Assembly: GCA_037969665.1 (NCBI GenBank)
Contig: JBBKXV010000268.1
Span: forward strand, 1 to 43,047
Source of the DNA: Candidatus Altimarinota bacterium
GTDB taxonomy: Bacteria; Patescibacteriota; Gracilibacteria; 1-14-2-50-48-13
Direction: 5' to 3'
Length of the DNA stretch: 43,047 nt
This document shows positions 1,286-42,125 of the stretch, piece after piece. The position numbers and the translations under genes were made by a program. The notes beneath the pieces were generated by a model. The model was not told where the DNA came from and made no database searches. It saw only the letters and a program-made list of their open reading frames with translations. Position 1 is the first letter of the stretch. Each line of letters begins with the position of its first letter.

Positions 1286-1303
1286 ACGTGGTGGTGGGTA
1301 AAA

Positions 1304-2350
1304 TTATCGACGTTTACTGAGGCTCTTTGAAAGGGCTTTTGATAGGTTTTTCAAGAGTGAGGCGCTTAAGTTTTTAGCATCTACGGTAAAGCCTTTTTTG
1401 TACAATTCTACGGGTAGACACGTATCTATACCTACGGCAAAAAACTGACAATTCCCTTTTCCCTCTAGTAGGTTGATAAGGTGCAAGGCGCTTTCCCGCG
1501 ATCCTGTTTTCGGTGCTTTTTTCCCATTGATATAGCAGTCCATGTGGTCTGATAAGTCGCCAAAATCCACTTCCCCGTCACCTAGGTGCAATATGATGTG
1601 GTCTGCATCTGGATTCGCTCGTACATTCATAGCGGTGTACGCTAGTATGGTACTATCGTCGTTTTCCATCATTATCTTATTCTGGTATACACGTCGATAA
1701 TCGCCTCCCTTGTACTCTTTACCCTGTCGTTTGCATAGCGCCTTTATGGTGTCACGTGCCTCGGAATCGGTTGAGTGAGTTGCTACATACATACGCTCGC
1801 GCCCGCCTTGTATCGGTTCATGGTGATAAATACAATAGTCATTACCCGCCTTGTAAATCGTGTATTTTATGCTGTTATATTCCTGTTGCACGTCGCTCAT
1901 GGTTTTCGGCATGGGTTTATTCATAATCCTTTTCAGTGCATCACCTGCATAAGGCGCGATTGGTTCACCATAAAACGTCAAGTTGATAGTCGTAAAATCA
2001 TGGAAAAGTGCATACAATTCACGTATTGCAAGCCATGTAAGGGTCTCGCGTGTCACGTACATTCCATTTTCATCGCGATATATTTCGTTTTCCATAGATC
2101 CTGACGTATCCATATTGATATGTATCATGTACTCTTTACCCCTTGCGTTGTCGGTTCTGGTGAAGAGTCTTTTGCTTGTTTTGTATTCGCTGCATCTATT
2201 TGTATCTAGTAGCCCCCGCCTGTCGAGCGAGGGTCTATAAAATAAGTTGTCTTTGAGTTGTGCAAGTACCTTTTTGCGAAGGTGGATATTTGTATGCTGG
2301 TCTATCATGGTGATTATTTCGTGAGTAGGTCGGAAAGTTGTTTTTTGCAC
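1304..2350 (-). CDS. von Willebrand factor A (vWA) domain protein, CobT-like partner of the AAA+ ATPase
   Basis: MIDAS motif D-x-S-x-S in INMDTSGSM. It sits immediately downstream of the MoxR-like ATPase. The alternative ATG at 2308 would remove the 37-nt overlap. Confidence 0.75.
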   Translation of the reverse strand: MQKTTFRPTHEIITMIDQHTNIHLRKKVLAQLKDNLFYRPSLDRRGLLDTNRCSEYKTSKRLFTRTDNARGKEYMIHINMDTSGSMENEIYRDENGMYVTRETLTWLAIRELYALFHDFTTINLTFYGEPIAPYAGDALKRIMNKPMPKTMSDVQQEYNSIKYTIYKAGNDYCIYHHEPIQGGRERMYVATHSTDSEARDTIKALCKRQGKEYKGGDYRRVYQNKIMMENDDSTILAYTAMNVRANPDADHIILHLGDGEVDFGDLSDHMDCYINGKKAPKTGSRESALHLINLLEGKGNCQFFAVGIDTCLPVELYKKGFTVDAKNLSASLLKNLSKALSKSLSKRR

Positions 2351-3675
2351 TTCTCAAGTTCCTCTAGGTATGTACGTATTTTATCAATATCCTGTTTGAG
2401 ACTTTCAAGGTGTGAGGTTGTCACTTTTTCAATCTCTTTAGGTATGGACTTCGTGACGGTTGCCCCTATGTCCTTGGTTGCCTGTACATGGTTTTTTGCG
2501 GTCTCGTATAAAGCATGGGTCTCAAATTGTCTGCTATACGATTCAAAACTTGTCGCTACTTCTCGGATACAGTTCAAGACAAGTTCTCGCTCCTCTTCAT
2601 CGAGTATCTTTTGCGTAAATCCCGCGCGTACGCTTTCGGTGAGGGGTAAGTCTGCATTGACTAGCGCGCTGATATGGTCGATATCTCGTAGGCTCGGGCA
2701 ATACGTTATAGACCCGTCTATAAACTTCGGTAAGGTCTTTTTAATGATTTCAAAAAGATACGGTAGGTATATCTCTGCTTTTGGGTATCTCTCGGAAAAA
2801 CTTTGCGCTATATGTTCCATGTCGGGCATCCCTACGTCTAAGGCGCAAAATCGTGAAAGTGTCGCGGTGTTATAGTCCTTCAATCCCGCGTAGCTCGGGG
2901 GGTTGGATGTCGCAAAAAGCATAAACTCCTTATGTGGATGTATGGTTTCTACTATCCCGCTTTCCGTTGCTTTTTCGGTAAGAGTAAGAGATCCAAAACG
3001 GTGATTATTTACTTCAATGACCGCCTGTATAGTGAGTAATACGTCTGCATGGGCTGCGTTTATTTCATCCAGTAGTATCCAGTGCCCCTCTCTCATGGCA
3101 ATCGTGAGTAGACCGTCTTGCCAAACGGTTGTACCGTCTATAAGCACGTAGCGCCCTACTAAGTCTTCTCGCCCTGTTTGCCCATTGAGGTTGATACGAA
3201 AAAGGGTCTTCTTATTCCTCTTCGCAACCTCTCGGATAAGAGTCGTTTTTCCTGTTCCTGTATGTCCATAGATTAAAGCGGGTCGCGTTGCATTTTTACA
3301 TGCCTCTAAGAAGTTAATCTGGTCTTGTGGTATCTGGATGTTTTCCATTGCTTCGGGTTCCTCCTCTTGAGTCTGGTCTTGCTTGTCCTCCTCTTGGTCT
3401 TCTGGTGCATCGCCTTTTTTGCCCTTCTCGCTGTCTTTACCTGTAGTTTCCTCTTGCTTGTCTGCCTCTTGTGGGTCGGTTTTCTTTTTCTCTTGTTCAT
3501 CCTTGGTGGATTCCTTTTTCTTTTTGTCTGTCTCTTGGTCGTTCTTATTTGGCGCGCCTTCGTAGTCGGTTGTGGTGGTGGTGCCCTCCTCGGTCGTAGC
3601 CATTGAGGCAAGCGCGTTATTTTTTGCGGTGGTCTTTGATACTTCTAAGGTCTCGGAAAGTGTTGTAGCTTTCAT
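2314..3675 (-). CDS. AAA+ ATPase of the MoxR/CobS (AAA_5-like) type with a ~120-aa charged low-complexity N-terminal extension
   Basis: Walker A YGHTGTGKTT and Walker B WILLDEINAA. The N-terminus is rich in K/E/D/T/Q. Paired with a vWA gene. Confidence 0.85.
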   Translation of the reverse strand: MKATTLSETLEVSKTTAKNNALASMATTEEGTTTTTDYEGAPNKNDQETDKKKKESTKDEQEKKKTDPQEADKQEETTGKDSEKGKKGDAPEDQEEDKQDQTQEEEPEAMENIQIPQDQINFLEACKNATRPALIYGHTGTGKTTLIREVAKRNKKTLFRINLNGQTGREDLVGRYVLIDGTTVWQDGLLTIAMREGHWILLDEINAAHADVLLTIQAVIEVNNHRFGSLTLTEKATESGIVETIHPHKEFMLFATSNPPSYAGLKDYNTATLSRFCALDVGMPDMEHIAQSFSERYPKAEIYLPYLFEIIKKTLPKFIDGSITYCPSLRDIDHISALVNADLPLTESVRAGFTQKILDEEERELVLNCIREVATSFESYSRQFETHALYETAKNHVQATKDIGATVTKSIPKEIEKVTTSHLESLKQDIDKIRTYLEELEKCKKQLSDLLTK

Positions 3676-3703
3676 AATAAAAATGGTGTAGGGTAAAAAA
3701 TAT

Positions 3704-4429
3704 TTATAATGATAATTCTGGCATCTGTATAAGGTTCATCTGCGCTTTTGCCTCTTGGATATGGTCAAGAATTATCGCGATCCTTTCATCTAGTAACGCG
3801 GTGCTGTCAATCGTGTATGTAGGTTTTTTATCCATGTGTGCCTTTTGTAGGTACACTTGCGTTTCGTTGAGTACATTCGCAATCCAACGTGTATTAGCAA
3901 AAAGGTCGTAGGACTCTTTCATAGCTTTATGGGCAAGCTCGGACTCCTTGAGGTTTACAAACTTTATGTCCATACTTTTTTCCCATGGGATAGGCGCAAG
4001 TAGTACATAGCTCTCGTGGGTTCGTGTGGTACGTTGTAAAAAATAGCGCATAGTGTTGTACTGGATAACTTGCCCATGGTATAGGTCTCTCGTGTTCCTG
4101 TTTATTGGGCGTGATATATTGAATGTCTTATATCCACTTTCCATGTCGGGGGCTTCATGTTGCGTCATATAGTGCGTTCCTATATGGGTACCGTAGGTGA
4201 AAAAGTTGATAATAGTTGTGTGTAATTTCATGCCCTCGTGGCGGGGTAGCGCGGTGATTTCAGCCTGTAAGGGGCTATTTTTTGAGGTTCGCAAGTATAC
4301 GGTGCGCCTGTAATATGTGGGCTCTGGATCTGGTGCATCCCATACGGAAAACAAGAAGTGTTCAAAATCCGTGCGGGTCTTGCATACTTTACTTCGTATC
4401 TGGTGCGGTTTTTTTTGTACTCTTGGCAT
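3704..4429 (-). CDS. Hypothetical protein (241 aa), directly upstream of the ATPase-vWA pair
   Basis: Long ATG ORF in operon context. No motif recognised. Confidence 0.65.
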   Translation of the reverse strand: MPRVQKKPHQIRSKVCKTRTDFEHFLFSVWDAPDPEPTYYRRTVYLRTSKNSPLQAEITALPRHEGMKLHTTIINFFTYGTHIGTHYMTQHEAPDMESGYKTFNISRPINRNTRDLYHGQVIQYNTMRYFLQRTTRTHESYVLLAPIPWEKSMDIKFVNLKESELAHKAMKESYDLFANTRWIANVLNETQVYLQKAHMDKKPTYTIDSTALLDERIAIILDHIQEAKAQMNLIQMPELSL

Positions 4430-4634
4430 ACAATGGCGGGAAAAATAAGGTAAAAATGGATATATCGAGCGCCTCGGCTATGGTGCATAAGGTTTCTAAC
4501 TTAAAGCGTTTGCCTTGCTCGGTTCTGGATATGGTCATTCGGTTGAGTCCTGTAAGGCGGGCTAGCTCAAACGTGGTCATGTGGTCGCCTTTGGACTCTC
4601 GGTGTTTGCGTATATTTGCGCCTATAAAGCGCAT
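4389..4634 (-). CDS. XRE/Cro-like helix-turn-helix transcriptional regulator (81 aa)
   Basis: MRFIGANIRKHRESKGDHMTTFELARLTGLNRMTISRTEQGKR fits the XRE-family HTH pattern. I chose the internal ATG at 4634, because the track ORF extends to 4796 and overlaps the upstream gene. Confidence 0.75.
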   Translation of the reverse strand: MRFIGANIRKHRESKGDHMTTFELARLTGLNRMTISRTEQGKRFKLETLCTIAEALDISIFTLFFPPLYAKSTKKTAPDTK

Positions 4635-4656
4635 GACATAGCTCGGTGTATTAGTT

Positions 4657-4689
4657 GCCCTAGGTACCCTTGCGGGCGCTCCTAGGGGC
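4657..4689. promoter_or_regulatory. Inverted repeat with two CCTAGG palindromes (candidate operator) just upstream of the HTH gene
   Basis: GCCCTAGG (4657..4664), a 16-nt spacer containing GCGGGCGC, then CCTAGGGGC (4681..4689). Confidence 0.4.
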
Positions 4690-4704
4690 TGTTTCTTGCT
4701 GTTT

Positions 4705-4989
4705 TTATCTTGCTTGCTGGTTGTCTGCATGAAGGGCGGTAAGTAATTCAGTAAAATTGACGTTTCTTGCCTCAATATCTCGCTCATTAAATCCAAATAC
4801 CATAAAGAAACGTTGAGATAATTCTCGCTGGTTCAAGGAGTCTTTAAGAAAATGATATATGCCCTCGTCCTCGCTGCAAAAATTATACGCGTTCCATGTG
4901 TCGTGGTTTGTCCACCCGTTGTACTCGTCCATGTCTGGATAGGTATCAAGCGCAAGGTTTTCTAGTGTGTTGGCGGTCTGTTCAGTCAT
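4705..4989 (-). CDS. Hypothetical protein (94 aa) with a W-x-N-x-D-T-W-N motif
   Basis: The track ORF starts at a TTG at 5022. The ATG at 4989 (MTEQTANTL) is preceded by the conserved CTACTTATTACAACCCCT leader. Confidence 0.6.
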   Translation of the reverse strand: MTEQTANTLENLALDTYPDMDEYNGWTNHDTWNAYNFCSEDEGIYHFLKDSLNQRELSQRFFMVFGFNERDIEARNVNFTELLTALHADNQQAR

Positions 4990-5030
4990 AGGGGTTGTAA
5001 TAAGTAGGGGTATAGTTTTCAAACATGGTT

Positions 5031-5516
5031 CTAGTCAAGGTCTTTCAGGATTCCTTCAAGTACAGAGCGCAATTTTTTCATAGGGTCAAGTGCGGTGGTC
5101 GCCTCTTCGATTCTCTGCTCCTCGTCATGCTCGTTGTCGTAGGTAAATGTAGGGGGCATAAACTTACCATTCTGCATTGCCTTCTTAATCCTGTCCATGG
5201 TGCGCTTGCGTAGTGTGCGTATGTCCTCGATACGTTCATCCGATCCCTCGCCTTCGCCTAGGTAAAAGCTACATAAGCGATTGCCTAGGGCTGTTAGAGT
5301 GTCGTTTTTGCTTAGGGCTTCAATGTGTGGTGACAAGAGATTGTCATTCTCACCCTGTAATGCCATTACTTGCATATCTGTAGCTACTTGGGCAGTGAGG
5401 ATTAGATCAAGCATATCGCGTAGCTCGTTATAGCTCATGCGTTCCATGGTGGTATCTGGATGGTTTTGCGGGTACGCCTTTTTATTTTGTGCATGGGTTC
5501 TTTTTGCTGTTTTCAT
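5031..5516 (-). CDS. Hypothetical protein (161 aa)
   Basis: ATG ORF preceded by CTACTTATTACAACCCT, a 16-nt match to the leader of the next gene. Confidence 0.7.
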   Translation of the reverse strand: MKTAKRTHAQNKKAYPQNHPDTTMERMSYNELRDMLDLILTAQVATDMQVMALQGENDNLLSPHIEALSKNDTLTALGNRLCSFYLGEGEGSDERIEDIRTLRKRTMDRIKKAMQNGKFMPPTFTYDNEHDEEQRIEEATTALDPMKKLRSVLEGILKDLD

Positions 5517-5543
5517 AGGGTTGTAATAAGTAGTTGGAAAAAA

Positions 5544-5951
5544 TTATAGTGACGCTTTGAGTGTCTGGATTGCTACACGTGATGCAGATTCTAGATCCTC
5601 TATTTGTTTGCTTTGTATGATTCTACACCGTTGTAGTGATGCATTGTTTTTCTGTAGGTCTTTTATTTGTTCATCTTGGGCCTTGATGGTCTTTTTTTGC
5701 CTCTGGATGCAATCATAAAACCTTTCATTTGTAGCGCGTAGCCCGTCACAAGTACAAGCCTCTGGATTAGGTTGTATAAGCGTTGCAAGCTGTTCCAGGA
5801 GGCAATCAGCTTTATTTGGCAAGTCTCTTGTATCCTTGAGGGTTGCAAGTTGTTCTCGTAGCTTGGTAATGATGCGCGCTTGCGCCTCAATACGTTGTCT
5901 TTGGGTATCAATGGCGCTTTCGTACATGTCGGAATTGTTTCTAAAAATCAT
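5544..5951 (-). CDS. Hypothetical coiled-coil protein (135 aa from the internal ATG)
   Basis: The C-terminal 125 aa is heptad-like and charged. The track N-terminal 67 aa is S/P/F/Y-rich and improbable. An ACCCCTAC element lies 18 nt upstream of the ATG at 5951. Confidence 0.5.
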   Translation of the reverse strand: MIFRNNSDMYESAIDTQRQRIEAQARIITKLREQLATLKDTRDLPNKADCLLEQLATLIQPNPEACTCDGLRATNERFYDCIQRQKKTIKAQDEQIKDLQKNNASLQRCRIIQSKQIEDLESASRVAIQTLKASL

Positions 5952-6097
5952 AGCAGGGAAAGGAAAAAAGTAGGGGTTGTTTAATTGATTATTGTAAGGA
6001 CTAGCCAAGCAATGAAGAGTAGCTTCAGGGGCATAGGGACAAGAATACAAGCCACTAGAAGAAGGAAAAGAAAAGGCATAAGAAAGGGGTTCAAGTA

Positions 6098-6280
6098 TTA
6101 AAGATAGTGTCCATTTTGGGATAGTCGTATTTGCATGGCAAAAGCTATACATACAATGACTAAACTCGTTAGCGGGTACTCGTGCAATCGTATTCCATAG
6201 CCATAAACAAACAGGGGCAAGGATATATAGACAACGTGCAGGGCATCTTTCAAATAGGATATAAAGGGTTCTAGGTTCAT
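6098..6280 (-). CDS. Candidate small two-helix membrane protein (60 aa)
   Basis: Two hydrophobic stretches. The ATG is preceded by the C-rich CTCTTGACCCC. Short and unsupported otherwise. Confidence 0.35.
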   Translation of the reverse strand: MNLEPFISYLKDALHVVYISLPLFVYGYGIRLHEYPLTSLVIVCIAFAMQIRLSQNGHYL

Positions 6281-6389
6281 GGGGTCAAGAGTTAGCTATA
6301 GATAGAGTATCGAAGGTGCGCGCGGGCGCGTGACTCGATCAGGGCGGAATAGTAGTAATCATAAGCATAAGGATTAAGCGATTAAGCAA

Positions 6390-6770
6390 TTAAGCTATAG
6401 AATCTGGATTGAGTAGCGTACATAATAGGAAAGACCCAAAACGGATTAACGTTGTATAAAACAATATGTCAGCCATAAACAAAGCACCACCTACGAAGCC
6501 CGCGCCTGCTACAGGAGCAGCTACAAGCAAGGCAATTGAGATAAGCATTGCAAGTAGTACAAGTGGTACAAGTACACTTGTAACAATACAAGCGACTGTA
6601 TTTGTAATGCTTGCAGTTGCTAGCGTAATAGCGTGGACATCCTTTTTAATTGCTTGGAATTGGTCGCTCTCAAGTACATTAACTACAGTCTCTTGGACTG
6701 TCTCAAAAGCGCCAGTCACTGTATCAAGTGCGCTAGTAAATACGTTGGAAACGTTTGCAAATGCTGTCAT
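6390..6770 (-). CDS. Membrane protein (126 aa), first gene of leftward operon 1
   Basis: The C-terminal half has 2-3 hydrophobic helices (VLVPLVLLAMLISIALLVAAPVAGAGFVGGALF...). The internal ATG at 6770 is preceded by TATATTACCCCTCTCACC. Confidence 0.55.
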   Translation of the reverse strand: MTAFANVSNVFTSALDTVTGAFETVQETVVNVLESDQFQAIKKDVHAITLATASITNTVACIVTSVLVPLVLLAMLISIALLVAAPVAGAGFVGGALFMADILFYTTLIRFGSFLLCTLLNPDSIA

Positions 6771-6943
6771 GGTGAGAGGGGTAATATAGTAGGTTGTTCT
6801 CTCTCTTGGAACATCTTTATTATACCGAAACTGTAGCACAATACAAGTATAATACTATCATTAAGGTTGCAATATTAAAGGTTTATTGCTTCAGTATGTA
6901 GTATAAGCCCTGAGCCCTATAATATATAATATTACATGCATCC
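6771..6943. promoter_or_regulatory. Divergent control region between leftward operon 1 and the rightward late operon
   Basis: AT-rich. TATAAT hexamers on the plus strand at 6848, 6918 and 6925. On the minus strand, TATAAT (6824..6819) has TTGTAT 16 nt upstream (6846..6841). Confidence 0.4.
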
Positions 6944-7210
6944 ATGGAAATCATAAATAGTGCGTGGGAGGATGAAGTACGAAGGGAATTAGAAAAGATT
7001 ATGACTCCCAAGGATATAGCGAAGTTGCATAAGAAGCTACTGACGTCAAGTAGTGACAAGGTAGCACTAGGGGCATTGAAAGAGCTATACGGGGTCGGGG
7101 GTGTTGGGAAGGCATCATCAAACAGTGTGCCCCATATTATCCTTAACATTGCACCACAAGCGGGGATCCCTTCGATCGTCGAGGATATACGGATAGGGAA
7201 CGGGGGGTAA
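6944..7210 (+). CDS. Small protein (88 aa); candidate small terminase or DNA-binding subunit by position only
   Basis: ATG start and plausible helical, charged composition, immediately upstream of the large terminase. The overlapping minus ORF 6883..7275 starts at GTG and is P/S/I/F-rich. Confidence 0.4.
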   Translation: MEIINSAWEDEVRRELEKIMTPKDIAKLHKKLLTSSSDKVALGALKELYGVGGVGKASSNSVPHIILNIAPQAGIPSIVEDIRIGNGG

Positions 7211-7310
7211 TGTTTGGGGGGGACTGGTGGGGTGTCCCGACGTATTGGAGATAAAAGAAATAAGATACCCCCCACCCATAATTTTACATCAAAAAACCTA
7301 AGCTACACCT

Positions 7311-9044
7311 ATGGTATCACTAGATGAAGAGTTGTTTAACGATGAGGATCACCACACGAATGGAGAGTTACGGAACTACCCCGTCCATTACTATGAGATG
7401 AGTGATGAGGAGTTGTTCATGATGGGTTTGTACCGTGAAGGGAAGCGAGGTAACAAGATTGTGCCTATGGGATCTCGTAAGAGGAGTGAGTTGGAGGAGA
7501 CCTTGGATGTGGATGAGGAGTTTTTAGTGGAGAAACCTGTGGCGCCTAAGGTGAAGAAGCCGAAGAAGGTACCTGGTGTTGTTGATGTGGATAGTGAGGA
7601 GGCATTGAGTGAGGAGTTAGCGCGTCATGAGGGGTTGAAGAAGGAGACTATTAACTTCTTAGAGTTGTCGGGTTTCCAGGCCAAGCAGATAGAGGCCCAT
7701 CTTCAAGCGATGCGGTATAAGTATGTGTTGTATGGAGGTGCAGCTGGTGGTGGTAAGAGTTATTTCTTGCGATGGCAGGCGGTATTTATGTGTATGTACT
7801 ACTTCCAGGTGTATGGTGCTAAGGGAGTACGTGTGGGATTATTTTGTGAGGATTATCCAGCCTTGAAGGAACGCCAGATCAGTAAGGTGGAGTTTGAGTT
7901 CCCTAGTTGGTTAGGGACGTTGAATAGGAGTGAGAGTGAGTTCAGGCTTCATGCTGCCTTTGGTGGTGGAGTGATAGCGTTTAGGAATTTGGATGATCCG
8001 AGTAAGTACTTGAGTAGTGAGTTTGCGAGTATTTTTATTGATGAGTTGACGAAGGATAAGGAGGAGGTGTTTCACTTCTTGGTATTGCTCCGTTTACGTT
8101 GGCCAGGCATCCCCAAGCATGATACGAAGTTTATAGCGGGGAGTAATCCAGGTGGCCCAGGCCATGGATGGGTGAAGAAGTTATGGATTGATCGGAATTT
8201 TGAGGGCATGGATAAGGTGGATCCCAGAGAGTTTTGTTATATCCAAGCCTTGTACTCGGATAATAAGTTTATTGACCCTGGGTATGGTGATCAGTTGAGT
8301 ATGCTGCCAGATGATCTTGCGAAGGCGTACCGTGATGGAAATTGGGATGTCTTTGCTGGTCAATACTTCACGGAGTTTAATCGGGATGTGCATGTGATAG
8401 ATGATTTTGAGGATGACGCCACGAAGAAGATTTTCAATGAGTTACCTGTGTTTATAGGGCTGGATTACGGGTATACTGCGCCAAGTGCGGTGGTTTTTGG
8501 GAGATTTTGGGATGGTGAATGGTATATTTTTGATGAGATCTACGTCAAAACCCATACCTATGAGGAGTTACGGGATGCGATACTCAATAAGATCCATGAC
8601 CAGGATATGAAGGTGGAAGCGGTGTTTGCGGATCCTGCTATATGGGCGAAGAAGGATAGTCCTACCTCTGGTGCGGATAAGATGCGGCCCTTACCGATGT
8701 TGAAGGCACCGAATGATCGTATTATTGGGTGGACAGTGGTGCGCCAGTTCTTTAAAACGAATGCTATCAAGATCAACCGCCGTTGTGTACACTTAGTGAG
8801 TACTATTCCTAACCAAGTACACTCAGAGCGCCGTATAGATGATTTAGATACGAATGGTGAGGATCATGCGGTGGATGCGTTACGGTATTTACTCCTCTCG
8901 TATAAGAACCGTGTCCATCAAGACAGTCCCTTGACATACCTAGGTGGTTCTGTGGATAGTGAGAGTGATTTAGAATCGTTATTTGATACCGACGACGATG
9001 AGTTTACAACGTTAGACGGAATGGGATTCTTCTATACAACATAA
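7311..9044 (+). CDS. terL: Terminase large subunit
   Basis: Walker A YGGAAGGGKSY and Walker B-like IFIDELT. 577 aa, followed by the portal gene. Confidence 0.93.
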   Translation: MVSLDEELFNDEDHHTNGELRNYPVHYYEMSDEELFMMGLYREGKRGNKIVPMGSRKRSELEETLDVDEEFLVEKPVAPKVKKPKKVPGVVDVDSEEALSEELARHEGLKKETINFLELSGFQAKQIEAHLQAMRYKYVLYGGAAGGGKSYFLRWQAVFMCMYYFQVYGAKGVRVGLFCEDYPALKERQISKVEFEFPSWLGTLNRSESEFRLHAAFGGGVIAFRNLDDPSKYLSSEFASIFIDELTKDKEEVFHFLVLLRLRWPGIPKHDTKFIAGSNPGGPGHGWVKKLWIDRNFEGMDKVDPREFCYIQALYSDNKFIDPGYGDQLSMLPDDLAKAYRDGNWDVFAGQYFTEFNRDVHVIDDFEDDATKKIFNELPVFIGLDYGYTAPSAVVFGRFWDGEWYIFDEIYVKTHTYEELRDAILNKIHDQDMKVEAVFADPAIWAKKDSPTSGADKMRPLPMLKAPNDRIIGWTVVRQFFKTNAIKINRRCVHLVSTIPNQVHSERRIDDLDTNGEDHAVDALRYLLLSYKNRVHQDSPLTYLGGSVDSESDLESLFDTDDDEFTTLDGMGFFYTT

Positions 9045-9054
9045 TACTGGTTTT

Positions 9055-11286
9055 ATGGCGAAAATGTCGTCGAAGAAATTCGAAGAAGACTACCTCAACC
9101 AAGGCTCAGAGTCTTCAGGAGGTGGTTTAGATGAGGGTGCGTCACAAGTGATGCAGCGTTTTACTCAGATGAGTGTACCGAAGCAGAACCGTCGTGAAAC
9201 ATGGGCTGGTGTACAACGATTGATGTACCCAAACAACCTTCACTGGATTGTTACTGGTGAGAGTTTCAACGGGCCTATACGTTTCCCGTCCTTACGAGAT
9301 ATGGTGAATGCCTTAGTCGACAAGTATATGGAGAATATGCCTGAGGCTATTATTAAACCGTACTACGATGAGGATAAGAACCTCTTGATTGCAAAGAAGG
9401 CCTATATCGACTACTTGAAACGTCAACCTTGGTACAAGACAGCCAGAAGGCGTGCCATTTTAGATATGATGATGTTTGGTGATGGGTTTCTTCAAGGAGA
9501 CTTCACCCATATCCAGAGAAAACTCCCAAAGACCAACGATGGTAAACGAGAAATGATTGACACTACACTCTTTCGTGATGTGAGTATCCGTCACGTAGGG
9601 TATCGGAATATGTTTATGGATGAAACAGCTCTTAGTCTCCAAGATCCCTTAGGGAATACGGGTGCGAGAGACTGTATTATCCGTCATTATGTACCCTATA
9701 GTCGGTATATGAACGAACTTGCTCCTCGTATGGGCTTTAGCACCAAGGGAGTGATGGCTACACCGTTTATTCCTGCAGAGAACGAGGATTTCTTGGTGAC
9801 GAATGACCGTGAGGTATGGGAGAAGTCCACGGTGGAGATGGTGAAGCTGTATGAGTATATGAATCCTGAGCAGGACTTGTATCGCGTTGTGGTGAATAAC
9901 GAAACGAAGTTTGAGGGGAGTCTTTTTGAGGCAAAAGGCACAAGTTGTATAGATGTCGTCCAATATAAGTTTGAACCACGGAACGATTCATCATGGAGTA
10001 CCTGTTTAGCTGAGTGGATTGCGCCGATGATTGACGCAAAAGACCAGGTATTCACCCTAGAGATGATGAACCTCAAGTTAACGCTCCAGCCTGTATTGGC
10101 AATGAGTGGTGACTTTGGATATAACCCACGTGCACATAAACTCCAGCCAGGTGCTATATGGAGAGCAGGAGGACAACTCCAAGGGAAGGTAGGTGATAGT
10201 ATTTCTCCTATTATTGCGGGTAATCCCAACACACGATCCTACGAGATGCTCCAGAAACTGGAGAGTGAGATGACTATGACGTCACGTGCTGATCTTCGGA
10301 ACCTGAATTTCTCTCAAGAACAGACAGCCACACAGACTATGGCTATTCAGTCATCACAAGAACTCCATAGTTCTACCATCACGACGATCAATGAGGTGGA
10401 GGCTGAAACATACCTCACACGTATCTTGATTGAGAAGATGGAGGCATTTATGACGGATGACACCACTGCACAAGAGAAGCGTCGTAAGATCCCTATTAAG
10501 AACTACCGTGTACGGCAAGCTGATACAGGAGAGTCCATGTTCTTTAATAAGAATGGCTACGAGGATTCTTTCTACATGACGAACCCAATGTTCAATGTTC
10601 CGTGTAGAGTAGAAGTTCTTGATAAGCGTAGCGAGAAGGCTGCTGGTATTGAGCAACTCGGTCGTTGGATGCAGTTCATCCCTATGTTGACGAACATCAT
10701 GCAGATTGATCCAGAGATTGCAAAGACCATCAACCTTGGTGGAGTCCTTGAGCAAGTGGTTGAAGGTATCGGTCTTGAGCACTCTCGTACCTTTACGGAT
10801 GATGATGCTATTTATGAGGATGAGTTTGCGATGTTACGAGAAGAGATTGAGTTTGGAAATATTGTTGAGTTACCAAAGAATGAGAGTCGTAAGGAAAGTT
10901 ACGCTCGTATGCGGTTCCTCTTGGCAATGAAGGAAGAACTCAATGAGCAGATGGACAGTAAGGAGGGACGTGATATTAAGAACGCTTTCTACCATGTGTT
11001 TATGCAGGTAATTGAGAATATCAGCCGTAACCACTTGAACGATAAGTATATGGAAGAGTCTGGTGGTGGTATGAATCCAGAGGATCCTGGAGCTATGGGT
11101 ATGGGGCCTGAAGGTATGCCAGGAGGGCAACTCCCATTCCAAGGAAATGCTTCTGGTATGAGTACAGCATCGACAAATCAAGCACTTGGTGGTTCAATGG
11201 GTGCTGACATGGGAGGAGCTGGAGGAAAGACGATGCCTCAACCAGATCAATCAGTCCTCAATCCTTCTGGTCGTGAACTTATTTAA
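9055..11286 (+). CDS. Portal protein (743 aa) with a Gly/Met-rich C-terminal tail
   Basis: Size and position directly after terL. Low-complexity C-terminus GGGMNPEDPGAMGMGPEGMPGG... Confidence 0.8.
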   Translation: MAKMSSKKFEEDYLNQGSESSGGGLDEGASQVMQRFTQMSVPKQNRRETWAGVQRLMYPNNLHWIVTGESFNGPIRFPSLRDMVNALVDKYMENMPEAIIKPYYDEDKNLLIAKKAYIDYLKRQPWYKTARRRAILDMMMFGDGFLQGDFTHIQRKLPKTNDGKREMIDTTLFRDVSIRHVGYRNMFMDETALSLQDPLGNTGARDCIIRHYVPYSRYMNELAPRMGFSTKGVMATPFIPAENEDFLVTNDREVWEKSTVEMVKLYEYMNPEQDLYRVVVNNETKFEGSLFEAKGTSCIDVVQYKFEPRNDSSWSTCLAEWIAPMIDAKDQVFTLEMMNLKLTLQPVLAMSGDFGYNPRAHKLQPGAIWRAGGQLQGKVGDSISPIIAGNPNTRSYEMLQKLESEMTMTSRADLRNLNFSQEQTATQTMAIQSSQELHSSTITTINEVEAETYLTRILIEKMEAFMTDDTTAQEKRRKIPIKNYRVRQADTGESMFFNKNGYEDSFYMTNPMFNVPCRVEVLDKRSEKAAGIEQLGRWMQFIPMLTNIMQIDPEIAKTINLGGVLEQVVEGIGLEHSRTFTDDDAIYEDEFAMLREEIEFGNIVELPKNESRKESYARMRFLLAMKEELNEQMDSKEGRDIKNAFYHVFMQVIENISRNHLNDKYMEESGGGMNPEDPGAMGMGPEGMPGGQLPFQGNASGMSTASTNQALGGSMGADMGGAGGKTMPQPDQSVLNPSGRELI

Positions 11287-11297
11287 CCACAGTTTCT

Positions 11298-11549
11298 ATG
11301 GAAGAATCCTATGAGTCTCAGTTGATGCGTAAGCTAAAGAATGGGACAATCAATGATGCTGAGTGTAGTGATATCCTTGAGAGAGGAGACAGAACTCTAC
11401 GCTTAGCATACGAGCAGAAAGAACGTGAGGGGATGCGTGAAAAAGCACACCTAGCACGTACCTATGGGGAAGGAGTATGGGACGGAAGAGATAGCCAGGG
11501 AAATAAGTTTAAACATATACCTATTCACGAAGTACTCGATGCCGACTAA
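11298..11549 (+). CDS. Hypothetical protein (83 aa)
   Basis: ATG ORF in the head module. Its stop overlaps the next start (ATGCCGACTAA). Confidence 0.55.
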   Translation: MEESYESQLMRKLKNGTINDAECSDILERGDRTLRLAYEQKEREGMREKAHLARTYGEGVWDGRDSQGNKFKHIPIHEVLDAD

Positions 11550-11868
11550 GGAACCAAAGAAAACACCAAAGCTCCCAAAAGAACTAGAGATTGATACAAC
11601 AGTCAACTCTCTTGCCGAAGGCCTTACGGGAGATCTCGCAGCATTTTTAGACTACAAGTTAGTTCTCGAAAGCCCAACACTACGTGAGGCAGCAGAGGAG
11701 TTGCTTCGTCTAAGGATGGTAGAGTCAATCGAAACAATCAAAGACCGCATACGCTCACTGAGAGACGCCTCTGAAGCAGAGAGACTTGCCAAGAGAATCG
11801 AACAAGGACAAACTACACATGAGAGTGTGGATGGTGCGGCTTCAATGGATTTTACTGATATATTTTAA
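11539..11868 (+). CDS. Hypothetical protein (109 aa from the internal ATG)
   Basis: The internal ATG at 11539 gives an 11-nt coupling overlap with the upstream stop. The track ORF starts at 11464. Confidence 0.5.
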   Translation: MPTKEPKKTPKLPKELEIDTTVNSLAEGLTGDLAAFLDYKLVLESPTLREAAEELLRLRMVESIETIKDRIRSLRDASEAERLAKRIEQGQTTHESVDGAASMDFTDIF

Positions 11869-11877
11869 TACACCACA

Positions 11878-12198
11878 ATGGCACAGACATTCTACATTGC
11901 AAAGAACGGTAAGGAGTACCTTACTGCCTCTGACGCAGAAGTAAAAGGGGGAGGATTAGTAGCACGACGTACTCCTATGGGAGAGCTTCGTGAGAAGGTT
12001 CGTCTTACAAAAGCAGAACGTGATGAAATTAAAAAGCGTAATGCTTATGAGAGTAATCAGGCTGTGCGGTATGAGGTCAACGGTTCATTTGACCAGACTC
12101 AAGAGGAGGAAGTGGATGTTGCAGAAACTGCACCTGCCACTGAAGAGAAGAAAGATGCCTCTGGTATCGAAGTTGACAAGGTTGTAGTCAAGAAGTAA
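11878..12198 (+). CDS. Hypothetical protein (106 aa)
   Basis: ATG ORF, followed by hairpins and an intergenic region. Confidence 0.6.
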   Translation: MAQTFYIAKNGKEYLTASDAEVKGGGLVARRTPMGELREKVRLTKAERDEIKKRNAYESNQAVRYEVNGSFDQTQEEEVDVAETAPATEEKKDASGIEVDKVVVKK

Positions 12199-12258
12199 CA
12201 TCCCTCCGTAGGAGCTTTTTCAAGAGGCATTGGTACTGAGTATTATGGTAATATGGGG

Positions 12259-12300
12259 AATAGCACATCTTTCTGTAGGGGAATGGTGTGCTATTTTCTT
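12259..12300 (+). terminator. Terminator-like hairpin followed by a TTGACA box
   Basis: AATAGCACA (12259..12267) pairs with TGTGCTATT (12287..12295), then TTCTT. TTGACA at 12299..12304 with a weak -10 AACAAT 18 nt downstream. Confidence 0.5.
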
Positions 12301-12358
12301 GACATAAAACCCTTTATCCTCCAACAATAAGGATGTTTTTGATCTTTACACATAGTTT

Positions 12359-13201
12359 ATGACAACCCCAACGAGTGGAGACTCTTCAGACGTGGATATG
12401 GAAGTAGCCTTTGGCTTATCCGATGCCGTTAGCGATGAAAGAGATACTACTGACGTGGAACAAGAGCAGTCTACTGACGTACTTCAATCTGAAGAAGGTA
12501 CAGAGAACCCAACTGCTGACGGTGATGAGTTAGAACCTTCCACTAATGATTCACCGGAAGAGTCTGATGAGGATACGTCCTCAAAGGAAAAGAGAAAAAG
12601 CCTGGAAGATGCACATCGCTTTATTGTCGATTTGATCGAAGATCAGTTCAACAGTTTAGATGCAGGTAATCTATCAGGAAAAGAGCTTCAAGAATGGTTT
12701 AAGGAGAATGAGACCTTTGCAGAAGTAGCGAATAGGTCAAAACGTATGAAGGAGCGCTATCGTTCTTTTATAGAAAAAGACCACACAGTTACAGCGGAGG
12801 ATACTCCAACATCAGATGAAGATGATGAAAATCGTCCGATGACGGTGAAAGAGTTTAAACGTCTTTCTTCACTCCAGCAGGAAACTCTACTGAAAAATGG
12901 GTTACGTCGAGCCGAGAAAGCAGAGTTTGAAGCTTTTGCAACAAACCTCAGCATAAAAGGTAATGACGCAACAAACTTGCGAGAAACAGCTGATGCTATC
13001 TATCGTGTGAATGACTCTATGGAGTATAGCCAAGCCCTCAATGCAGCACATCGTGCTCTCTATGCAGGCAAAGGAACACCTATACAAATTACGGGCGCAA
13101 ATTCACAAGGTGGAGTAGCTGAAAAACCAGTTGTGGAAGAAACTGTCGATTTGAGTGAGTGGTCAGCTGGTATGGATGCGAAAGCATTTGGTATCGAGTA
13201 A
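12359..13201 (+). CDS. Scaffolding-like protein (280 aa, acidic N-terminal half)
   Basis: Lies between the portal and capsid genes. The D/E/S/T-rich N-terminus and helical C-terminus are typical of scaffolds. Positional inference. Confidence 0.55.
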   Translation: MTTPTSGDSSDVDMEVAFGLSDAVSDERDTTDVEQEQSTDVLQSEEGTENPTADGDELEPSTNDSPEESDEDTSSKEKRKSLEDAHRFIVDLIEDQFNSLDAGNLSGKELQEWFKENETFAEVANRSKRMKERYRSFIEKDHTVTAEDTPTSDEDDENRPMTVKEFKRLSSLQQETLLKNGLRRAEKAEFEAFATNLSIKGNDATNLRETADAIYRVNDSMEYSQALNAAHRALYAGKGTPIQITGANSQGGVAEKPVVEETVDLSEWSAGMDAKAFGIE

Positions 13202-13235
13202 ACCATCCTTCGGTTACATCTAAAACTATAAAGAG

Positions 13236-13273
13236 TGTGCAAAGAGAAATTTATTTACTTTGTGCATTTTTTT
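13236..13273 (+). terminator. Hairpin plus T7 run abutting the next start codon
   Basis: TGTGCAAAG (13236..13244) pairs with CTTTGTGCA (13258..13266, two G-U pairs). TTTTTTT at 13267..13273 is followed directly by the ATG at 13274. Confidence 0.5.
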
Positions 13274-13735
13274 ATGAAATCTATAAAAGTTCTCAACACA
13301 GGAGTTGGAAGTTTCCCAGTGCCAATGCCATTCCCACCTCTCAAGGTGAAGTCTGGTACAGCAGGATCTATCCTCCCTGGAATGTTGGTTATCGTAGACG
13401 GCACTAATGCTGGATACGTTAAGGCAGCTCCAACTGGAACTGCAAGTACATCTGTTCGTGTAGGTATTGCCATTGGCACATCTTCTGAAACAGCTGGTGC
13501 AGACGGAACAATTACTGTTGAGTCTTCTCCTGAATTGGTTGTTCAGATGTACGCTGCAACTCCAGGAAATCTGGTGACAGCAACAAACCTTGGTAAGTAC
13601 ACGCTTGATGTTACAAGTGGTGATTACTTGCTTGACGAAAATGACACGACAAATGGATTTATCCGCTTGTTGAGTTTTGACAATGCAACAAATGGTCTTT
13701 GTACAGCTGTTATCAGCTTCGACATTTGGAGCTAG
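13274..13735 (+). CDS. Candidate head decoration or auxiliary capsid protein (153 aa)
   Basis: Immediately upstream of the major capsid gene. G/A/T/V-rich, beta-type sequence. The track ORF starts at a GTG at 13235; the ATG at 13274 is preferred. Confidence 0.45.
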   Translation: MKSIKVLNTGVGSFPVPMPFPPLKVKSGTAGSILPGMLVIVDGTNAGYVKAAPTGTASTSVRVGIAIGTSSETAGADGTITVESSPELVVQMYAATPGNLVTATNLGKYTLDVTSGDYLLDENDTTNGFIRLLSFDNATNGLCTAVISFDIWS

Positions 13736-13771
13736 TTTGGTTTTCTATCTATTTTTTGATTCTTTCAACTT

Positions 13772-14698: not shown

Positions 14699-14730
14699 TT
14701 CGGCACATTTGTTTGCATAATCATTGATGG

Positions 14731-14764
14731 TTCCTCTATAGTTTCTATAGGGGGACTTTTCTTT
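14731..14764 (+). terminator. Rho-independent terminator after the capsid gene
   Basis: TTCCTCTATAG / CTATAGGGGGA stem (about 11 bp with G-U pairs, loop TTT) followed by CTTTTCTTT. Confidence 0.7.
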
Positions 14765-14775
14765 ACTATTTTGAT

Positions 14776-19880: not shown

Positions 19881-19889
19881 CATAGAGAT

Positions 19890-20552: not shown

Positions 20553-20553
20553 T

Positions 20554-35122: not shown

Positions 35123-35250
35123 AGTTGTAGTGGGTTATAGAGTAATCCTCACCTATTCGATGCACAAAGGCAACGCAAGAGAACAGGTGAGGCACTACGC
35201 TACTTAGAGTGGTTCAGTAGTTTAGTGTCGTACTGAGGACAAAAGTACTC

Positions 35251-36763: not shown

Positions 36764-36777
36764 GGTAGTTGTATGTA

Positions 36778-37686: not shown

Positions 37687-37745
37687 GGTAGGGGTGATAA
37701 TTGATGGTGTAATTGTATATTCTCTTAGTTATATGGGCAAGGTAT

Positions 37746-39596: not shown

Positions 39597-39923
39597 TTAC
39601 AAGTATTTCTTCTTTTCTTCCTCTGTGAGAAAGGCATAAAATTCATCTGGATTTCTCATAAAGCGCACTTGCTTATCCTCTAATGTCAGAGGGGTACGAA
39701 AACGCTGTTCTGGGTGAAATGATTTCCATCCTGATAGGATAGCATCTTCGATCATCTCTATAATCTCCACATCATACATAAATGATTTCTTACAGCGGAG
39801 TATCTTCTTCCGTAGCACCTTCACCCCTCTTGGGGTGATAGGCGCCTTCATATCTGTTCTGTGTGCCTTAAACTCTTCGATAAGGTCTTCAATATCTGGA
39901 CTGAACGTGATGGAGTCTTCCAT
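39597..39923 (-). CDS. Hypothetical protein (108 aa), possibly replication-associated by position
   Basis: ATG ORF preceded by TTATTCATAACCCCTACT. Confidence 0.6.
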   Translation of the reverse strand: MEDSITFSPDIEDLIEEFKAHRTDMKAPITPRGVKVLRKKILRCKKSFMYDVEIIEMIEDAILSGWKSFHPEQRFRTPLTLEDKQVRFMRNPDEFYAFLTEEEKKKYL

Positions 39924-39941
39924 AGTAGGGGTTATGAATAA

Positions 39942-40304
39942 CTACGCGATGAGGTCTTCTGGATTAAAGTCATTGACTGCCTGAGTTGCCTTTTCAAGGA
40001 CTTCTCCTTCGTTGGTGATGAGTAGTGCATCTGTAGGATAGAGTGCTAGGACGTACTGTCCATTCTGGTCTCTTCTATATCCAAGGTTACCCGCTATACG
40101 GACGTTGTCACCTTCCTTTACAGCAAGTGACTCTAAACGTGCATGTACACCGTCGTAACAGAAAAGTGTAAACTTTGTTTTCCCTCTTTCGTGTGTTGCT
40201 TCGAGTGTCAAAGCGTAGAAAGGTGTACCTGTTTTTGTTGTTCCAAGGTCTGCTTTTGTTAAAACTCCTTCGATACTAAATGCTGCTGATGATGATGTTT
40301 TCAT
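39942..40304 (-). CDS. ssb: Single-stranded DNA-binding protein (OB-fold, 120 aa)
   Basis: Size, beta-rich OB-like core, acidic C-terminal tail (DFNPEDLIA), and position between recombination and replication genes. The internal ATG at 40304 avoids overlap with the upstream gene. Confidence 0.6.
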   Translation of the reverse strand: MKTSSSAAFSIEGVLTKADLGTTKTGTPFYALTLEATHERGKTKFTLFCYDGVHARLESLAVKEGDNVRIAGNLGYRRDQNGQYVLALYPTDALLITNEGEVLEKATQAVNDFNPEDLIA

Positions 40305-40332
40305 ATGGGTAATAATAAAATATATGAATAAA

Positions 40333-41139
40333 TTAGATGCCAAACCACCTACGAAGAGTGTATCGTAAGCCACCCTTGTATGCTATACGAAGGTTCTCGA
40401 TCTCCTTGATGGTAGGGTGAGCGCCACGGGTAATAGTTCCTGGGTATAAGGTACGGTGTTTTTCTATCGTATGAAATTGTGGGTACTCTTTCTTTTGAGA
40501 GATACACGTATTACATATCTGCAAAGGTTTCCTTGCTTTCATAATCTCTCCGTGTCTATTCTCTGCGACGTGTTCTGCAGTAGGAAGTGTGTATGTAGAC
40601 TCAAGACATATCTTACATTTCGACAATGTGTAGGGTATCACCCCAAAGAGATAGCGTTTGATAGTACGTTGTTTTGGATGTTCCTTTACCTGTTTTTTTA
40701 TAGGTCGTGCAGGTTTTGTTAGAGCAATTTCCTTCTCATCTATAAGTGGGGTACTTACCCTGATTGGATCACTGTAGACCATAGGAACATTTCTTTTTAT
40801 AAACTCGGGGGTAAATTGTCCTTTCAACATACTTTGCTCCCAACACTGGTGACTACACCGTCTAGGTGAAGGGCCAGGATGTCTCCTATTACAGATATAC
40901 GTGAAGTGTTCAAAACACTCTTCGCACTGAAGTTTTGTATACCGTATTTTGGAAGATTTTTTTGAGTCTTCTGTAAGGTTAAACAGTCGCTTCTCTGGTT
41001 TCTGTGTCTCTTGTACTACACCCGCGCCCGCGTTGCCAAAGCAGGTGATGGAGCAGTAGGGGTACCAAGAGCTATGGTCGTCGATAGGCTCACTTATACA
41101 TTGTTTACATGATGTATAGGGTGTGTGTTGTTTGGTCAT
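40333..41139 (-). CDS. Cys-rich protein with three zinc-ribbon-like modules (268 aa)
   Basis: CKQC...CSITC, CEEC...CSHQC and CKIC...CNTC. Confidence 0.65.
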   Translation of the reverse strand: MTKQHTPYTSCKQCISEPIDDHSSWYPYCSITCFGNAGAGVVQETQKPEKRLFNLTEDSKKSSKIRYTKLQCEECFEHFTYICNRRHPGPSPRRCSHQCWEQSMLKGQFTPEFIKRNVPMVYSDPIRVSTPLIDEKEIALTKPARPIKKQVKEHPKQRTIKRYLFGVIPYTLSKCKICLESTYTLPTAEHVAENRHGEIMKARKPLQICNTCISQKKEYPQFHTIEKHRTLYPGTITRGAHPTIKEIENLRIAYKGGLRYTLRRWFGI

Positions 41140-41163
41140 TCGGTACGTGTAATAAGTAATAAA

Positions 41164-42105
41164 TTATATCGAAATGATTTCATCGTGGTAATACTCTTGA
41201 AAACCTTTCCAGTTCTCTTCACCGTCCATCATGTCATATGGGTTAGGCAAGATCATTGGCTCCCCTTCACGGATAGACTGTAGCCCCTGCATGTCACGAA
41301 GTAGACAATCTATAAGAAAACAGAAACTCTGAAGGTCGTAGGTCTCTGGCTCTTCCATGTGTAGTAGTACACTTTGAGGAGTCATAAGGTTTCCTTCCTT
41401 ATCTTTTCGAGACTTGGAGGTCTTAAAGAATCCGTAGGAAGATCGTATTGAGCCTGTAGTAAACTCTTCACGAGCAACAAGGGTGTAGAGTATTCTTTGC
41501 ATCTGGTACAAAAACATATTCTTTTCTACTGTTGCATCACTAAGAGTACGCACCATTTTCCAGTCCCAAAGACGTGTAATTGTCTCTCCCTTTTCGTCGC
41601 GCTCTGTAGACACAGCGTCAATAATAGAGGTGAAGGGTATATCAAAGGAACGTCCTTTGTTATCACGTATAAAGGTGTTCATAACGTACTCTGCATGGGT
41701 GAAGCGACGGCTCTCATCCTCGGAAAGCCATGCGTTTATATTCCGAACAAACTCTTCTGCAACAAGCAAAGCATGTTTGTTGAGTATTTGGGGGGTTAAA
41801 TTAACCGTTGTTTGTCGTGTGATCTTTGGAAACTCATCCTCAATGATAGGTTCAAGAAACGCGATAATCTCGGACTCTGGGGGCAAAATCATTAACCGTT
41901 TTCCTTGTTTGATGGAGTCTTTTACAATCCACTCAATCATTTCATGTAGGATAGATCCTTCCACCATAGTCGCACTCACTGGGTGTGTTGCAGTGCGAGT
42001 AATGTAGTGGCGCCAAAAGGCTATCTTAGAGTTCAGGTAGGTACGTATTTTACTGTATGAGAGGTACTCTACAGGATACGCACCAACAAATGGTGAAGCT
42101 GTCAT
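41164..42105 (-). CDS. PD-(D/E)XK (RecB/Cas4-like) exonuclease (313 aa)
   Basis: IIDAV ... LWDWKM (D ... D-x-K) and the YQMQRILY (Q-x-x-x-Y) motif. Adjacent to the annealase. Confidence 0.7.
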   Translation of the reverse strand: MTASPFVGAYPVEYLSYSKIRTYLNSKIAFWRHYITRTATHPVSATMVEGSILHEMIEWIVKDSIKQGKRLMILPPESEIIAFLEPIIEDEFPKITRQTTVNLTPQILNKHALLVAEEFVRNINAWLSEDESRRFTHAEYVMNTFIRDNKGRSFDIPFTSIIDAVSTERDEKGETITRLWDWKMVRTLSDATVEKNMFLYQMQRILYTLVAREEFTTGSIRSSYGFFKTSKSRKDKEGNLMTPQSVLLHMEEPETYDLQSFCFLIDCLLRDMQGLQSIREGEPMILPNPYDMMDGEENWKGFQEYYHDEIISI

Positions 42106-42125
42106 GGGTGTAGGGGTAAATAATA

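Follow-up and report, generated by a model that had tools for sequence, protein, structure and literature searches.

What is the element that abuts the start codons of the leftward genes in contig JBBKXV010000268.1, a sequence rich in T and A followed by a C-rich box free of G? The stretch analysed here (43,047 nt, hereafter the window) is the complete or near-complete genome of a tailed phage, organised as two arms, one of early genes read leftward on the minus strand and one of late genes read rightward. A sequence-only reading of this DNA had described the element and offered three functions for it: a translation-initiation leader independent of Shine-Dalgarno (SD) pairing, an early promoter giving very short leaders, or a boundary sequence for module exchange. 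The first is the best supported of the three, because the signal tracks start codons whether or not they lie in intergenic DNA, structure is minimal, SD cores are lacking and the spacers within operons are short. With a probability that we put at roughly 60%, the G-free leaders are SD-independent translation-initiation regions of a phage whose host does not use SD pairing, a role that we infer from sequence statistics.

The general properties of the start sites were compared between arms and with coding sequence. SD cores (GGAG, GAGG or AGGA) were found between -20 and -4 at one of 29 leftward and none of 20 rightward genes, as against 14-17% of random coding windows; the purine-rich core that marks an SD site (GGAGG or part of it, 5-10 nt upstream), which pairs with CCUCC in the 16S 3' tail, does not precede these starts. 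G accounts for 5.9% of positions -20 to -1 ahead of leftward genes and 6.8% ahead of rightward genes, compared with 21-24% in coding strands, and the longest G-free runs that end at an ATG reach 42 nt. The RNA around the starts is predicted to be open: over -30 to +30, the mean folding energy is -2.7 kcal/mol for leftward genes versus -8.6 at internal ATGs (P=6e-15), and -5.1 versus -10.2 kcal/mol for rightward genes (P=3e-8). Upstream ATG, GTG and TTG triplets are depleted two- to three-fold. An A occupies position -3 in 45% of leftward and 40% of rightward genes, and A makes up 30-34% of positions -10 to -1 and 34-36% of -20 to -11, without a dominant A tract.

Exclusion of G is also seen where the 20 nt before a start lie inside the upstream gene, both leftward (10% versus 20.6%, P=6.5e-4) and rightward (6.4% versus 24.3%, P=2e-8). 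Because the depletion persists in leaders that are themselves the coding sequence of the preceding gene, the constraint is tied to start codons and not to intergenic DNA. Stop-to-start spacers of 11-28 nt in the early operons contain next to no G, and a complete promoter would not fit within them. Rho utilisation (rut) sites are C-rich, G-poor, unstructured RNA tracts of roughly 60-80 nt; we rejected this identity for the G-free tracts, which are 11-42 nt long, too short, and end at start codons. A search of the window against Rfam 15 at the gathering score gave no match.

Is the C-richness of the leaders then a property of the early arm? At 4-fold degenerate sites of the sense strand, C and T stand at 0.226 and 0.263 in leftward genes and at 0.105 and 0.424 in rightward genes. 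Measured against these neutral values, C at -10 to -1 is raised 1.8-fold in leftward leaders (0.397 versus 0.226, P=6e-11) and 2.0-fold in rightward leaders (0.205 versus 0.105, P=2e-5). The extra C of the leftward leaders is thus mostly a by-product of composition, the early sense strand having double the C at neutral sites. When the plus strand is read, T and G are enriched in both arms, which is a genome-wide strand asymmetry, and two relatives (L020 and L021) have the same asymmetry between their arms. Replication asymmetry, transcription asymmetry and class-specific codon usage were considered as causes of the difference in composition. The element had been proposed as peculiar to leftward genes, with the other late genes lacking it. 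This holds for the word described below, but not for the exclusion of G, which is genome-wide, nor for most of the difference in C; the late genes share the depletion of G and are enriched in C over neutral sites.

Two features do distinguish the early arm: a word, and an excess of -10-like hexamers described further on. The 8-mer ACCCCTAC occurs seven times in the window, with six copies on the minus strand and a single one on the plus strand, as against 1.09 copies expected on both strands together, and none of 100 shuffles reached seven. Five of the copies lie within -30 to -1 of the 29 leftward starts, compared with 0.04 in shuffles that preserve the composition of each leader; the probability that any 8-mer attains five copies in shuffled leftward leaders is 0.0006. 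The excess claimed from sequence alone therefore survives comparison with a composition-matched background. Sub-words are increased 11- to 15-fold in the leftward leaders (ACCCCT 7 versus 0.46, CCCTAC 6 versus 0.47, TTATTA 7 versus 0.64). When up to one mismatch is allowed, enrichment across the window is only marginal (37 versus 25.9, a count reached by 4 of 100 shuffles). No comparable word was found upstream of rightward genes, and among gene starts the more general form (T/A)ACCC(C)TA(C) is seen upstream of leftward genes only, its ACCC mostly starting between -5 and -14 relative to the ATG.

The eleven examples from which the element was first described do all lie directly upstream of minus-strand ATGs, where they had been placed, and the reported 16-nt identity between two of them is exact (4992-5007 and 5518-5533). 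Some details had to be amended. The minus strand had been credited with five copies of ACCCCTAC, always intergenic; there is a sixth, inside a coding sequence, and it is probably a chance occurrence. The plus-strand copy is indeed single and within the fibre-like gene, but its position had been given as 17892-17899 and is three nucleotides lower. The spacing of 13 nt between box and ATG at gene 3675 is actually 9 nt. The sites are as follows.

42106-42125, minus strand: G-free 20-nt stop-to-start spacer TATTATTTACCCCTACACCC before ATG 42105 (PD-(D/E)XK nuclease), with ACCCCTAC at 42110-42117 and a TATTAT -10-like box upstream.
39924-39941, minus strand: G-free 18-nt spacer TTATTCATAACCCCTACT before ATG 39923, with ACCCCTAC at 39925-39932.
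37687-37745, minus strand: 59-nt spacer before ATG 37686, with ACCCCTAC at 37688-37695 and, upstream, TACAAT and ATCAATTA, as before the copy at 5970-5977.
6771-6846, minus strand: leader of the first leftward gene (ATG 6770), with C-box TATATTACCCCTCTCACC at 6771-6788.
6846-6841 and 6824-6819, minus strand: candidate promoter TTGTAT-16 nt-TATAAT, about 45 nt upstream of ATG 6770.
6080-6097, minus strand: spacer TACTTGAACCCCTTTCTT before a hydrophobic 32-aa small open reading frame (ORF; 6079-5981).
5952-5980, minus strand: 29-nt spacer ACAACCCCTACTTTTTTCCTTTCCCTGCT from the small-ORF stop to ATG 5951, with a single G, at -3, and ACCCCTAC at 5970-5977.
5517-5543, minus strand: G-free 27-nt spacer TTTTTTCCAACTACTTATTACAACCCT before ATG 5516, with an exact 16-mer in common with 4992-5007; a TATAAT overlaps the upstream stop codon.
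4990-5013, minus strand: ATACCCCTACTTATTACAACCCCT before ATG 4989, with ACCCCTAC at 5004-5011.
3676-3703, minus strand: G-free 28-nt spacer ATATTTTTTACCCTACACCATTTTTATT before ATG 3675 (AAA_5 ATPase).
1286-1303, minus strand: TTTTACCCACCACCACGT before a hydrophobic 26-aa small ORF (1285-1205).
1198-1204, minus strand: 7-nt spacer AAACCCT from the small-ORF stop to ATG 1197.
40305-40332, minus strand: G-free 28-nt spacer ending TTATTACCCAT before ATG 40304; TATTAT stops 8 nt short of the ATG, a geometry like that of leaderless genes.
35123-35141, minus strand: TCTATAACCCACTACAACT before ATG 35122, closing a 128-nt intergenic region.
41140-41163, minus strand: 24-nt spacer rich in T, A and C (2 G) ahead of ATG 41139; a promoter-like TTACCA-17-TATAAT has its end at 41163, 23 nt before the ATG.
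36764-36777, minus strand: G-free 14-nt spacer TACATACAACTACC before ATG 36763.
Ending at 36777, minus strand: promoter-like ATGACA-18-TATAAT with 11 of 12 matches, 13 nt before ATG 36763; predicted leader of about 7 nt.
41056-41063, minus strand: sixth minus-strand ACCCCTAC, within coding sequence 41139-40333, away from gene starts.
17889-17896, plus strand: sole plus-strand ACCCCTAC, within a 1219-aa fibre-like gene, away from gene starts.
7261-7310, plus strand: terminase leader GATACCCCCCACCC...CTACACCT (ATG 7311), a G-poor, C-rich rightward counterpart.
6840-6943, both strands: divergent control region between the arms, with a perfect TATAAT on each strand and without TAnnTTTG.

The leader is useful as a marker of start sites, since it corrects gene starts and reveals tiny ORFs. 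Two longest-ORF GTG starts on the minus strand (6390-6839 and 39942-40373) are probably wrong: G-free leaders together with in-frame stops indicate ATG 6770 (126 aa) in place of GTG 6839, and ATG 40304 (120 aa) in place of GTG 40373, the latter start being also the one called on L001, an identical Logan contig. The two tiny hydrophobic ORFs behind C-box leaders, of 26 aa (MKDTIKKKRIAYITMIVSLILLTVLL, 1205-1285, minus strand) and 32 aa (MPFLFLLLVACILVPMPLKLLFIAWLVLTIIN, 5981-6079, minus strand), are likely to be real small membrane peptides that ORF lists overlook. On the rightward side, G runs (GGGGGG, GGGGGGG and GGTGGGG) lie in the 3' end of an 88-aa ORF, within 7195-7275 on the plus strand, and are followed by GATACCCCCCACCC before the terminase gene. 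A hairpin between the G runs at 7200-7245 and this C run was considered and discarded, its stability being no better than that of shuffles (z=0.2).

We next looked for the word in related phages, using the leaders of 119 early genes from six related contigs, the window itself excluded. A related word, TAACCC, recurs in these relatives, which stand at 37-53% helicase identity (10 versus 1.1 expected), as do AACCC (16 versus 3.6) and ACCCC (12 versus 3.2). The context of the stop codon was rejected as the source of TAACCC, TAA being the upstream stop in just 6 of 19 cases. Ahead of the AAA_5 gene, a box of the type ACCC(C)T(T)AC is present in four phages (the window phage, L002, L005 and L008), while the remaining spacer has diverged. 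The words vary among phages, and include ACCCCTAC, ACCCTTA, ACCCACC and TAACCC. In one relative, L021, an almost identical leader of some 25 nt, GTTTATATCCTTAACNACTAACACT-ATG, precedes each of the first three early genes (19498-20730, minus strand).

The T/A-rich half of the element was examined for promoter signals, taking as a -10-like box the form TAnnnT with at least 5 of 6 matches to TATAAT. Such boxes stand upstream of 14 of the 29 leftward genes, compared with 7.4 in shuffles (P=0.0055), and the early arms of the relatives have 50 where 30.9 would be expected (P<0.001); upstream of rightward genes there is no enrichment. The hexamers stand at variable distances from the ATG and from the ACCC box, being spread evenly from -5 to -40 without a peak, and when leaders were aligned on the box no -10 or -35 appeared at a constant distance from ACCC. 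A two-box sigma-70 scan (-35 and -10 hexamers, 16-18-nt spacing) gave 11 versus 16.5 and 23 versus 21.2 in shuffles, which is not an enrichment. The geometry of leaderless transcripts, with the -10 hexamer about 7-10 nt from the start, is not general and was seen at only a few genes (40304, 35478 and 1197). The suggestion that the elements are early promoters with short leaders is therefore borne out as far as the enrichment of -10-like boxes goes, but not as regards a fixed distance to the ATG or the C-box.

How might such leaders work? Exclusion of G from the 20-30 nt ahead of each ATG clears SD-like cores, upstream ATG, GTG and TTG decoys and nearly all local RNA structure together. If the leaders are SD-independent initiation regions, ribosomes would load on open pyrimidine/adenine tracts, with protein S1 or a standby-type contact to single-stranded RNA as the probable means, and a loaded ribosome would use the first AUG, on short primary leaders and at internal cistrons alike. 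The early-arm word (T/A)ACCC(C)TA(C), which mostly begins 5-14 nt ahead of the AUG, the position of an SD, would be a sequence-preferred part of the landing site. The T/A-rich half would double as the -10 hexamer of sigma-70-type early promoters at roughly half of the early genes. Such promoters would be many and of the host type, with leaders of a few to a few tens of nucleotides, and this would explain why a T/A-rich box so often stands ahead of a C-rich one. We argue from its enrichment and conservation that the ACCCCTAC word is under selection. We argue against an obligatory SD-like role for it, given that its spacing is variable and that it is present at about half of the early genes and at none of the late genes.

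Several observations weigh against reading the leaders in this way. The distance from C-box to ATG ranges from 1 to 33 nt, looser than for an SD-like positioning element, and only about half of the leftward genes have an ACCC box. Longer flanks are common to some copies (the 16-mer at 4992/5518, and ATCAATTA before 37695 and 5977), so that duplication, rather than independent selection, may account for some of the 8-mer's recurrence. In Flavobacterium johnsoniae, UCCC at -14 to -11 cut expression by 90% (PMC6847099), implying that C-rich leaders are not generally favourable for SD-blind ribosomes. C-rich leaders can, moreover, pair with G in the downstream coding sequence, which suggests that more than lack of structure is involved.

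It is possible, though we doubt it, that the composite is mainly transcriptional, its T/A part being the -10 of an early promoter used by host RNA polymerase and the C-box the discriminator and initially transcribed region, so that many single early genes would have very short or near-leaderless mRNAs. This would account for the -10-like hexamers being enriched ahead of leftward genes and in the relatives' early arms and not ahead of rightward genes, for the good two-box matches ending 11-24 nt ahead of ATGs 36763 and 41139, and for the TATTAT that ends 8 nt before ATG 40304; a -20 to -10 bias in genomes of this kind has also been suggested to be a Pribnow box (Nakagawa 2017, PMC5397173). It sits poorly with the lack of any constant distance between ACCC and a -10 or -35, of a sharp peak near -10 and of enrichment in the full two-box scan. 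Exclusion of G and C-boxes are also found where genes overlap or sit 0-5 nt apart, and on the rightward arm, without -10 enrichment, and the spacers of 11-28 nt would require a promoter in each gap. We consider it unlikely that early mRNAs carry ACCCCTAC and its variants as operators, bound by a sequence-specific RNA-binding regulator of phage or host that switches translation or stability of the whole early class in the manner of T4 RegA. RegA regulates early T4 messages, and restriction of the word to one temporal or transcriptional class, in strict sense orientation and at or near start codons, would fit an operator, as would an enrichment far above composition and the related word in diverged relatives; minimal structure alone would not select C-richness. 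On the other hand, no ribosomal or RNA-binding protein is recognisable among the early proteins, the box occurs at about half of the early genes, its words differ among relatives and its spacing to the AUG is variable.

Equally hard to credit, in our estimation, is that (T/A)ACCCC(U)AC is a sequence-specific replacement of the SD, acting through a G-rich rRNA segment or a dedicated protein and giving translational control specific to the early class; interest in the word would rise sharply if it proved to be such a substitute. The narrower proposal that the C-box pairs with a G-rich single-stranded segment of host 16S rRNA, for example an altered 3' tail, is very improbable. A candidate complement of ACCCCUAC, GUAGGGG in helix 45 of proteobacterial 16S rRNA, would lie in a stable hairpin, and this lead was set aside. 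The tendency of the box to begin 5-14 nt before the AUG matches the position of an SD, and there are lineages that combine an altered 16S tail with few SD sequences, among them some Flavobacteriia and several candidate phyla (PMC10783764), but the spacing is much looser than that of an SD, the words vary among relatives, and the late genes lack the word yet are translated by the same ribosomes. We think it distinctly unlikely that the 8-mer is without function and reflects the copying of spacers between starts, by duplication or recombination in a three-letter, C-biased alphabet, possibly aiding module exchange. The exact 16-mer common to copies 4992 and 5518, the TACAAT..ATCAATTA..ACCCCTAC arrangement at both 37695 and 5977, the largely compositional origin of the difference in C between arms and the phage's own Rad52-like annealing protein and PD-(D/E)XK nuclease all favour copying. 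Shuffles that keep leader composition, however, still give P=0.0006 for any 8-mer at five copies, relatives whose divergence is too great for recent copying of spacers are independently enriched in words of the ACCC type, and a match of 8-16 nt is short for homologous exchange. The idea that the element marks a boundary of module exchange found no positive support beyond one 16-nt repeat.

The preferred reading, SD-independent initiation, can be set beside known systems. Non-SD genes of several phyla have C immediately before the start, C/A around -15, U around -25 and relaxed structure, a pattern (the third principal component of that study) that is strongest in Chlorobi and is also found in Deinococcus-Thermus, Bacteroidetes, beta-proteobacteria, Planctomycetes and Cyanobacteria (Nakagawa 2017, PMC5397173). 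The leftward genes of the phage have the same composition profile. The published pattern, however, is a genome-wide statistical tendency of bacteria, whereas here a phage has near-total exclusion of G and a discrete, over-represented early-arm word (ACCCCTAC, TAACCC). A non-SD motif that lies near the start of internal operon genes as well as of first ones cannot be a promoter (Lomsadze 2018, PMC6028130). The non-SD ribosome-binding sites of the Fibrobacteres-Chlorobi-Bacteroidetes (FCB) group (GeneMarkS-2 group B, PMC6028130) are alike in lacking an SD and in having one kind of motif at first and internal operon genes, as is found here. Their consensus, by contrast, is A-rich and centred about 9-13 nt upstream, while the early arm is C-rich and the late arm T/A-rich. 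The SD-blind ribosome of Bacteroidia (PMC6847099, PMC7797042) likewise initiates at sites of low structure with frequent A at -3 and depleted start-like triplets. As a control, the leaders of Bacteroides phage B40-8 proved to be 44-51% A and 9-11% C. Leaderless and short-leader genes (GeneMarkS-2 group C) resemble the early genes in that -10-like boxes lie near many early ATGs and several predicted leaders are shorter than 10 nt, but differ in that here there is no sharp peak about 10 nt from the start, most boxes are too far away or absent, and internal cistrons carry the signal too.

SD usage in phages follows that of their hosts (PMC6847405), and S1-dependent initiation is described for cyanobacteria by Mutsuda and Sugiura (2006; cited in both PMC6847405 and PMC6028130). 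Synechococcus phage Syn5, a marine phage, has SD-like cores at only 10 of its 61 genes and leaders that are rich in C and A and poor in G (for example CTACCCACAACCTACCCCGACACCT-ATG), and so resembles the window in its SD-poor, C/A-rich style of leader. Anabaena podovirus A-4L has the same two-arm layout, and a G-free box, CACTAACACACAC, is repeated shortly ahead of the ATG in its early genes. In A-4L (L014, NC_024358; early arm 432-14982), 13 of 22 early genes and three late genes stand behind (C)ACTAACACACAC, 5-15 nt before the ATG; we found no published description of this box. These cyanophages differ from the window phage in their words and in retaining some SD sequences, and no sequence similarity between them and the window phage was detected. 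In searches of the phage collection, the helicase and portal gave nothing from these phages, and the capsid matched only Bacillus phage PK1.

What, then, is the host? SD-scarce lineages in the literature include Bacteroidota, Prochlorococcus, Mollicutes, some Verrucomicrobiota and several candidate phyla. Bacteroidota promoters have the form TAnnTTTG, whereas those of the phage look like TATAAT; in the window TAnnTTTG is not enriched (31 versus 35.4), and none lies in the divergent control region. This lack of enrichment, together with TATAAT on both strands of the control region, makes a Bacteroidota host unlikely, and the host is probably an SD-poor lineage of another kind. The range is thereby narrowed to lineages that do not rely on SD pairing and have TATAAT-type -10 promoters. 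Relatives of the helicase were not found in any of 185,579 species genomes, those of the endolysin are all metagenomic, and a genome scan with the endolysin alignment returned only weak amidase matches (a Prosthecobacter metagenome-assembled genome (MAG), a Peribacteria MAG and Lysinibacillus). Plasmid matches came from Firmicutes only, at 29-36% identity; a Chlorobi plasmid was tried as a proxy for the host and rejected, its gene-start contexts being too mixed. The cyanobacterial HIP1 palindrome GCGATCGC is absent from the window. Beyond a few Bacteroidia models, the choice of start codons without SD pairing is poorly understood, and this phage lineage offers an extreme and clean case of it; the C-rich word, conserved in diverged relatives and limited to one gene class, could be tested as a determinant.

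The rest of the genome is organised as follows. The rightward arm (approximately 6944-33751) encodes the large terminase, portal/adaptor, capsid protein and large tail or internal proteins, along with an Amidase_3 endolysin and small lysis-region genes. The leftward arm extends from 6770 down to 334 and from 42926 down to 33714, unbroken across the window ends as judged from relatives, and its products include the AAA_5 ATPase, the Rad52-like protein, the PD-(D/E)XK nuclease, a DnaB-type primase-helicase and many small proteins. Neither a DNA polymerase nor an RNA polymerase was found in the window, and tRNAs are absent both from the window and from 13 related loci. None of 50,697 deposited phage genomes is a close relative (no nucleotide match, and protein matches only distant), and relatives at 37-53% helicase identity are known solely as metagenomic contigs. 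In one of these (L008, 1-1811), the terminase large subunit bears an intein (Pfam Intein_splicing). Relatives also have a long non-coding gap at the equivalent position of the early arm (L002 6110-6781, L008 6188-7188, L009 5689-7049). Across both ends of the window (42956-43047 and 1-102) run AT-rich iterated units of about 14 nt (TATGTATATTTATG, ATATATTTATGTATAT), which on the minus strand contain promoter-like TATACA-N17/18-TATTAT matches; these repeats could be a replication origin, a cluster of early promoters or a terminus of the genome.

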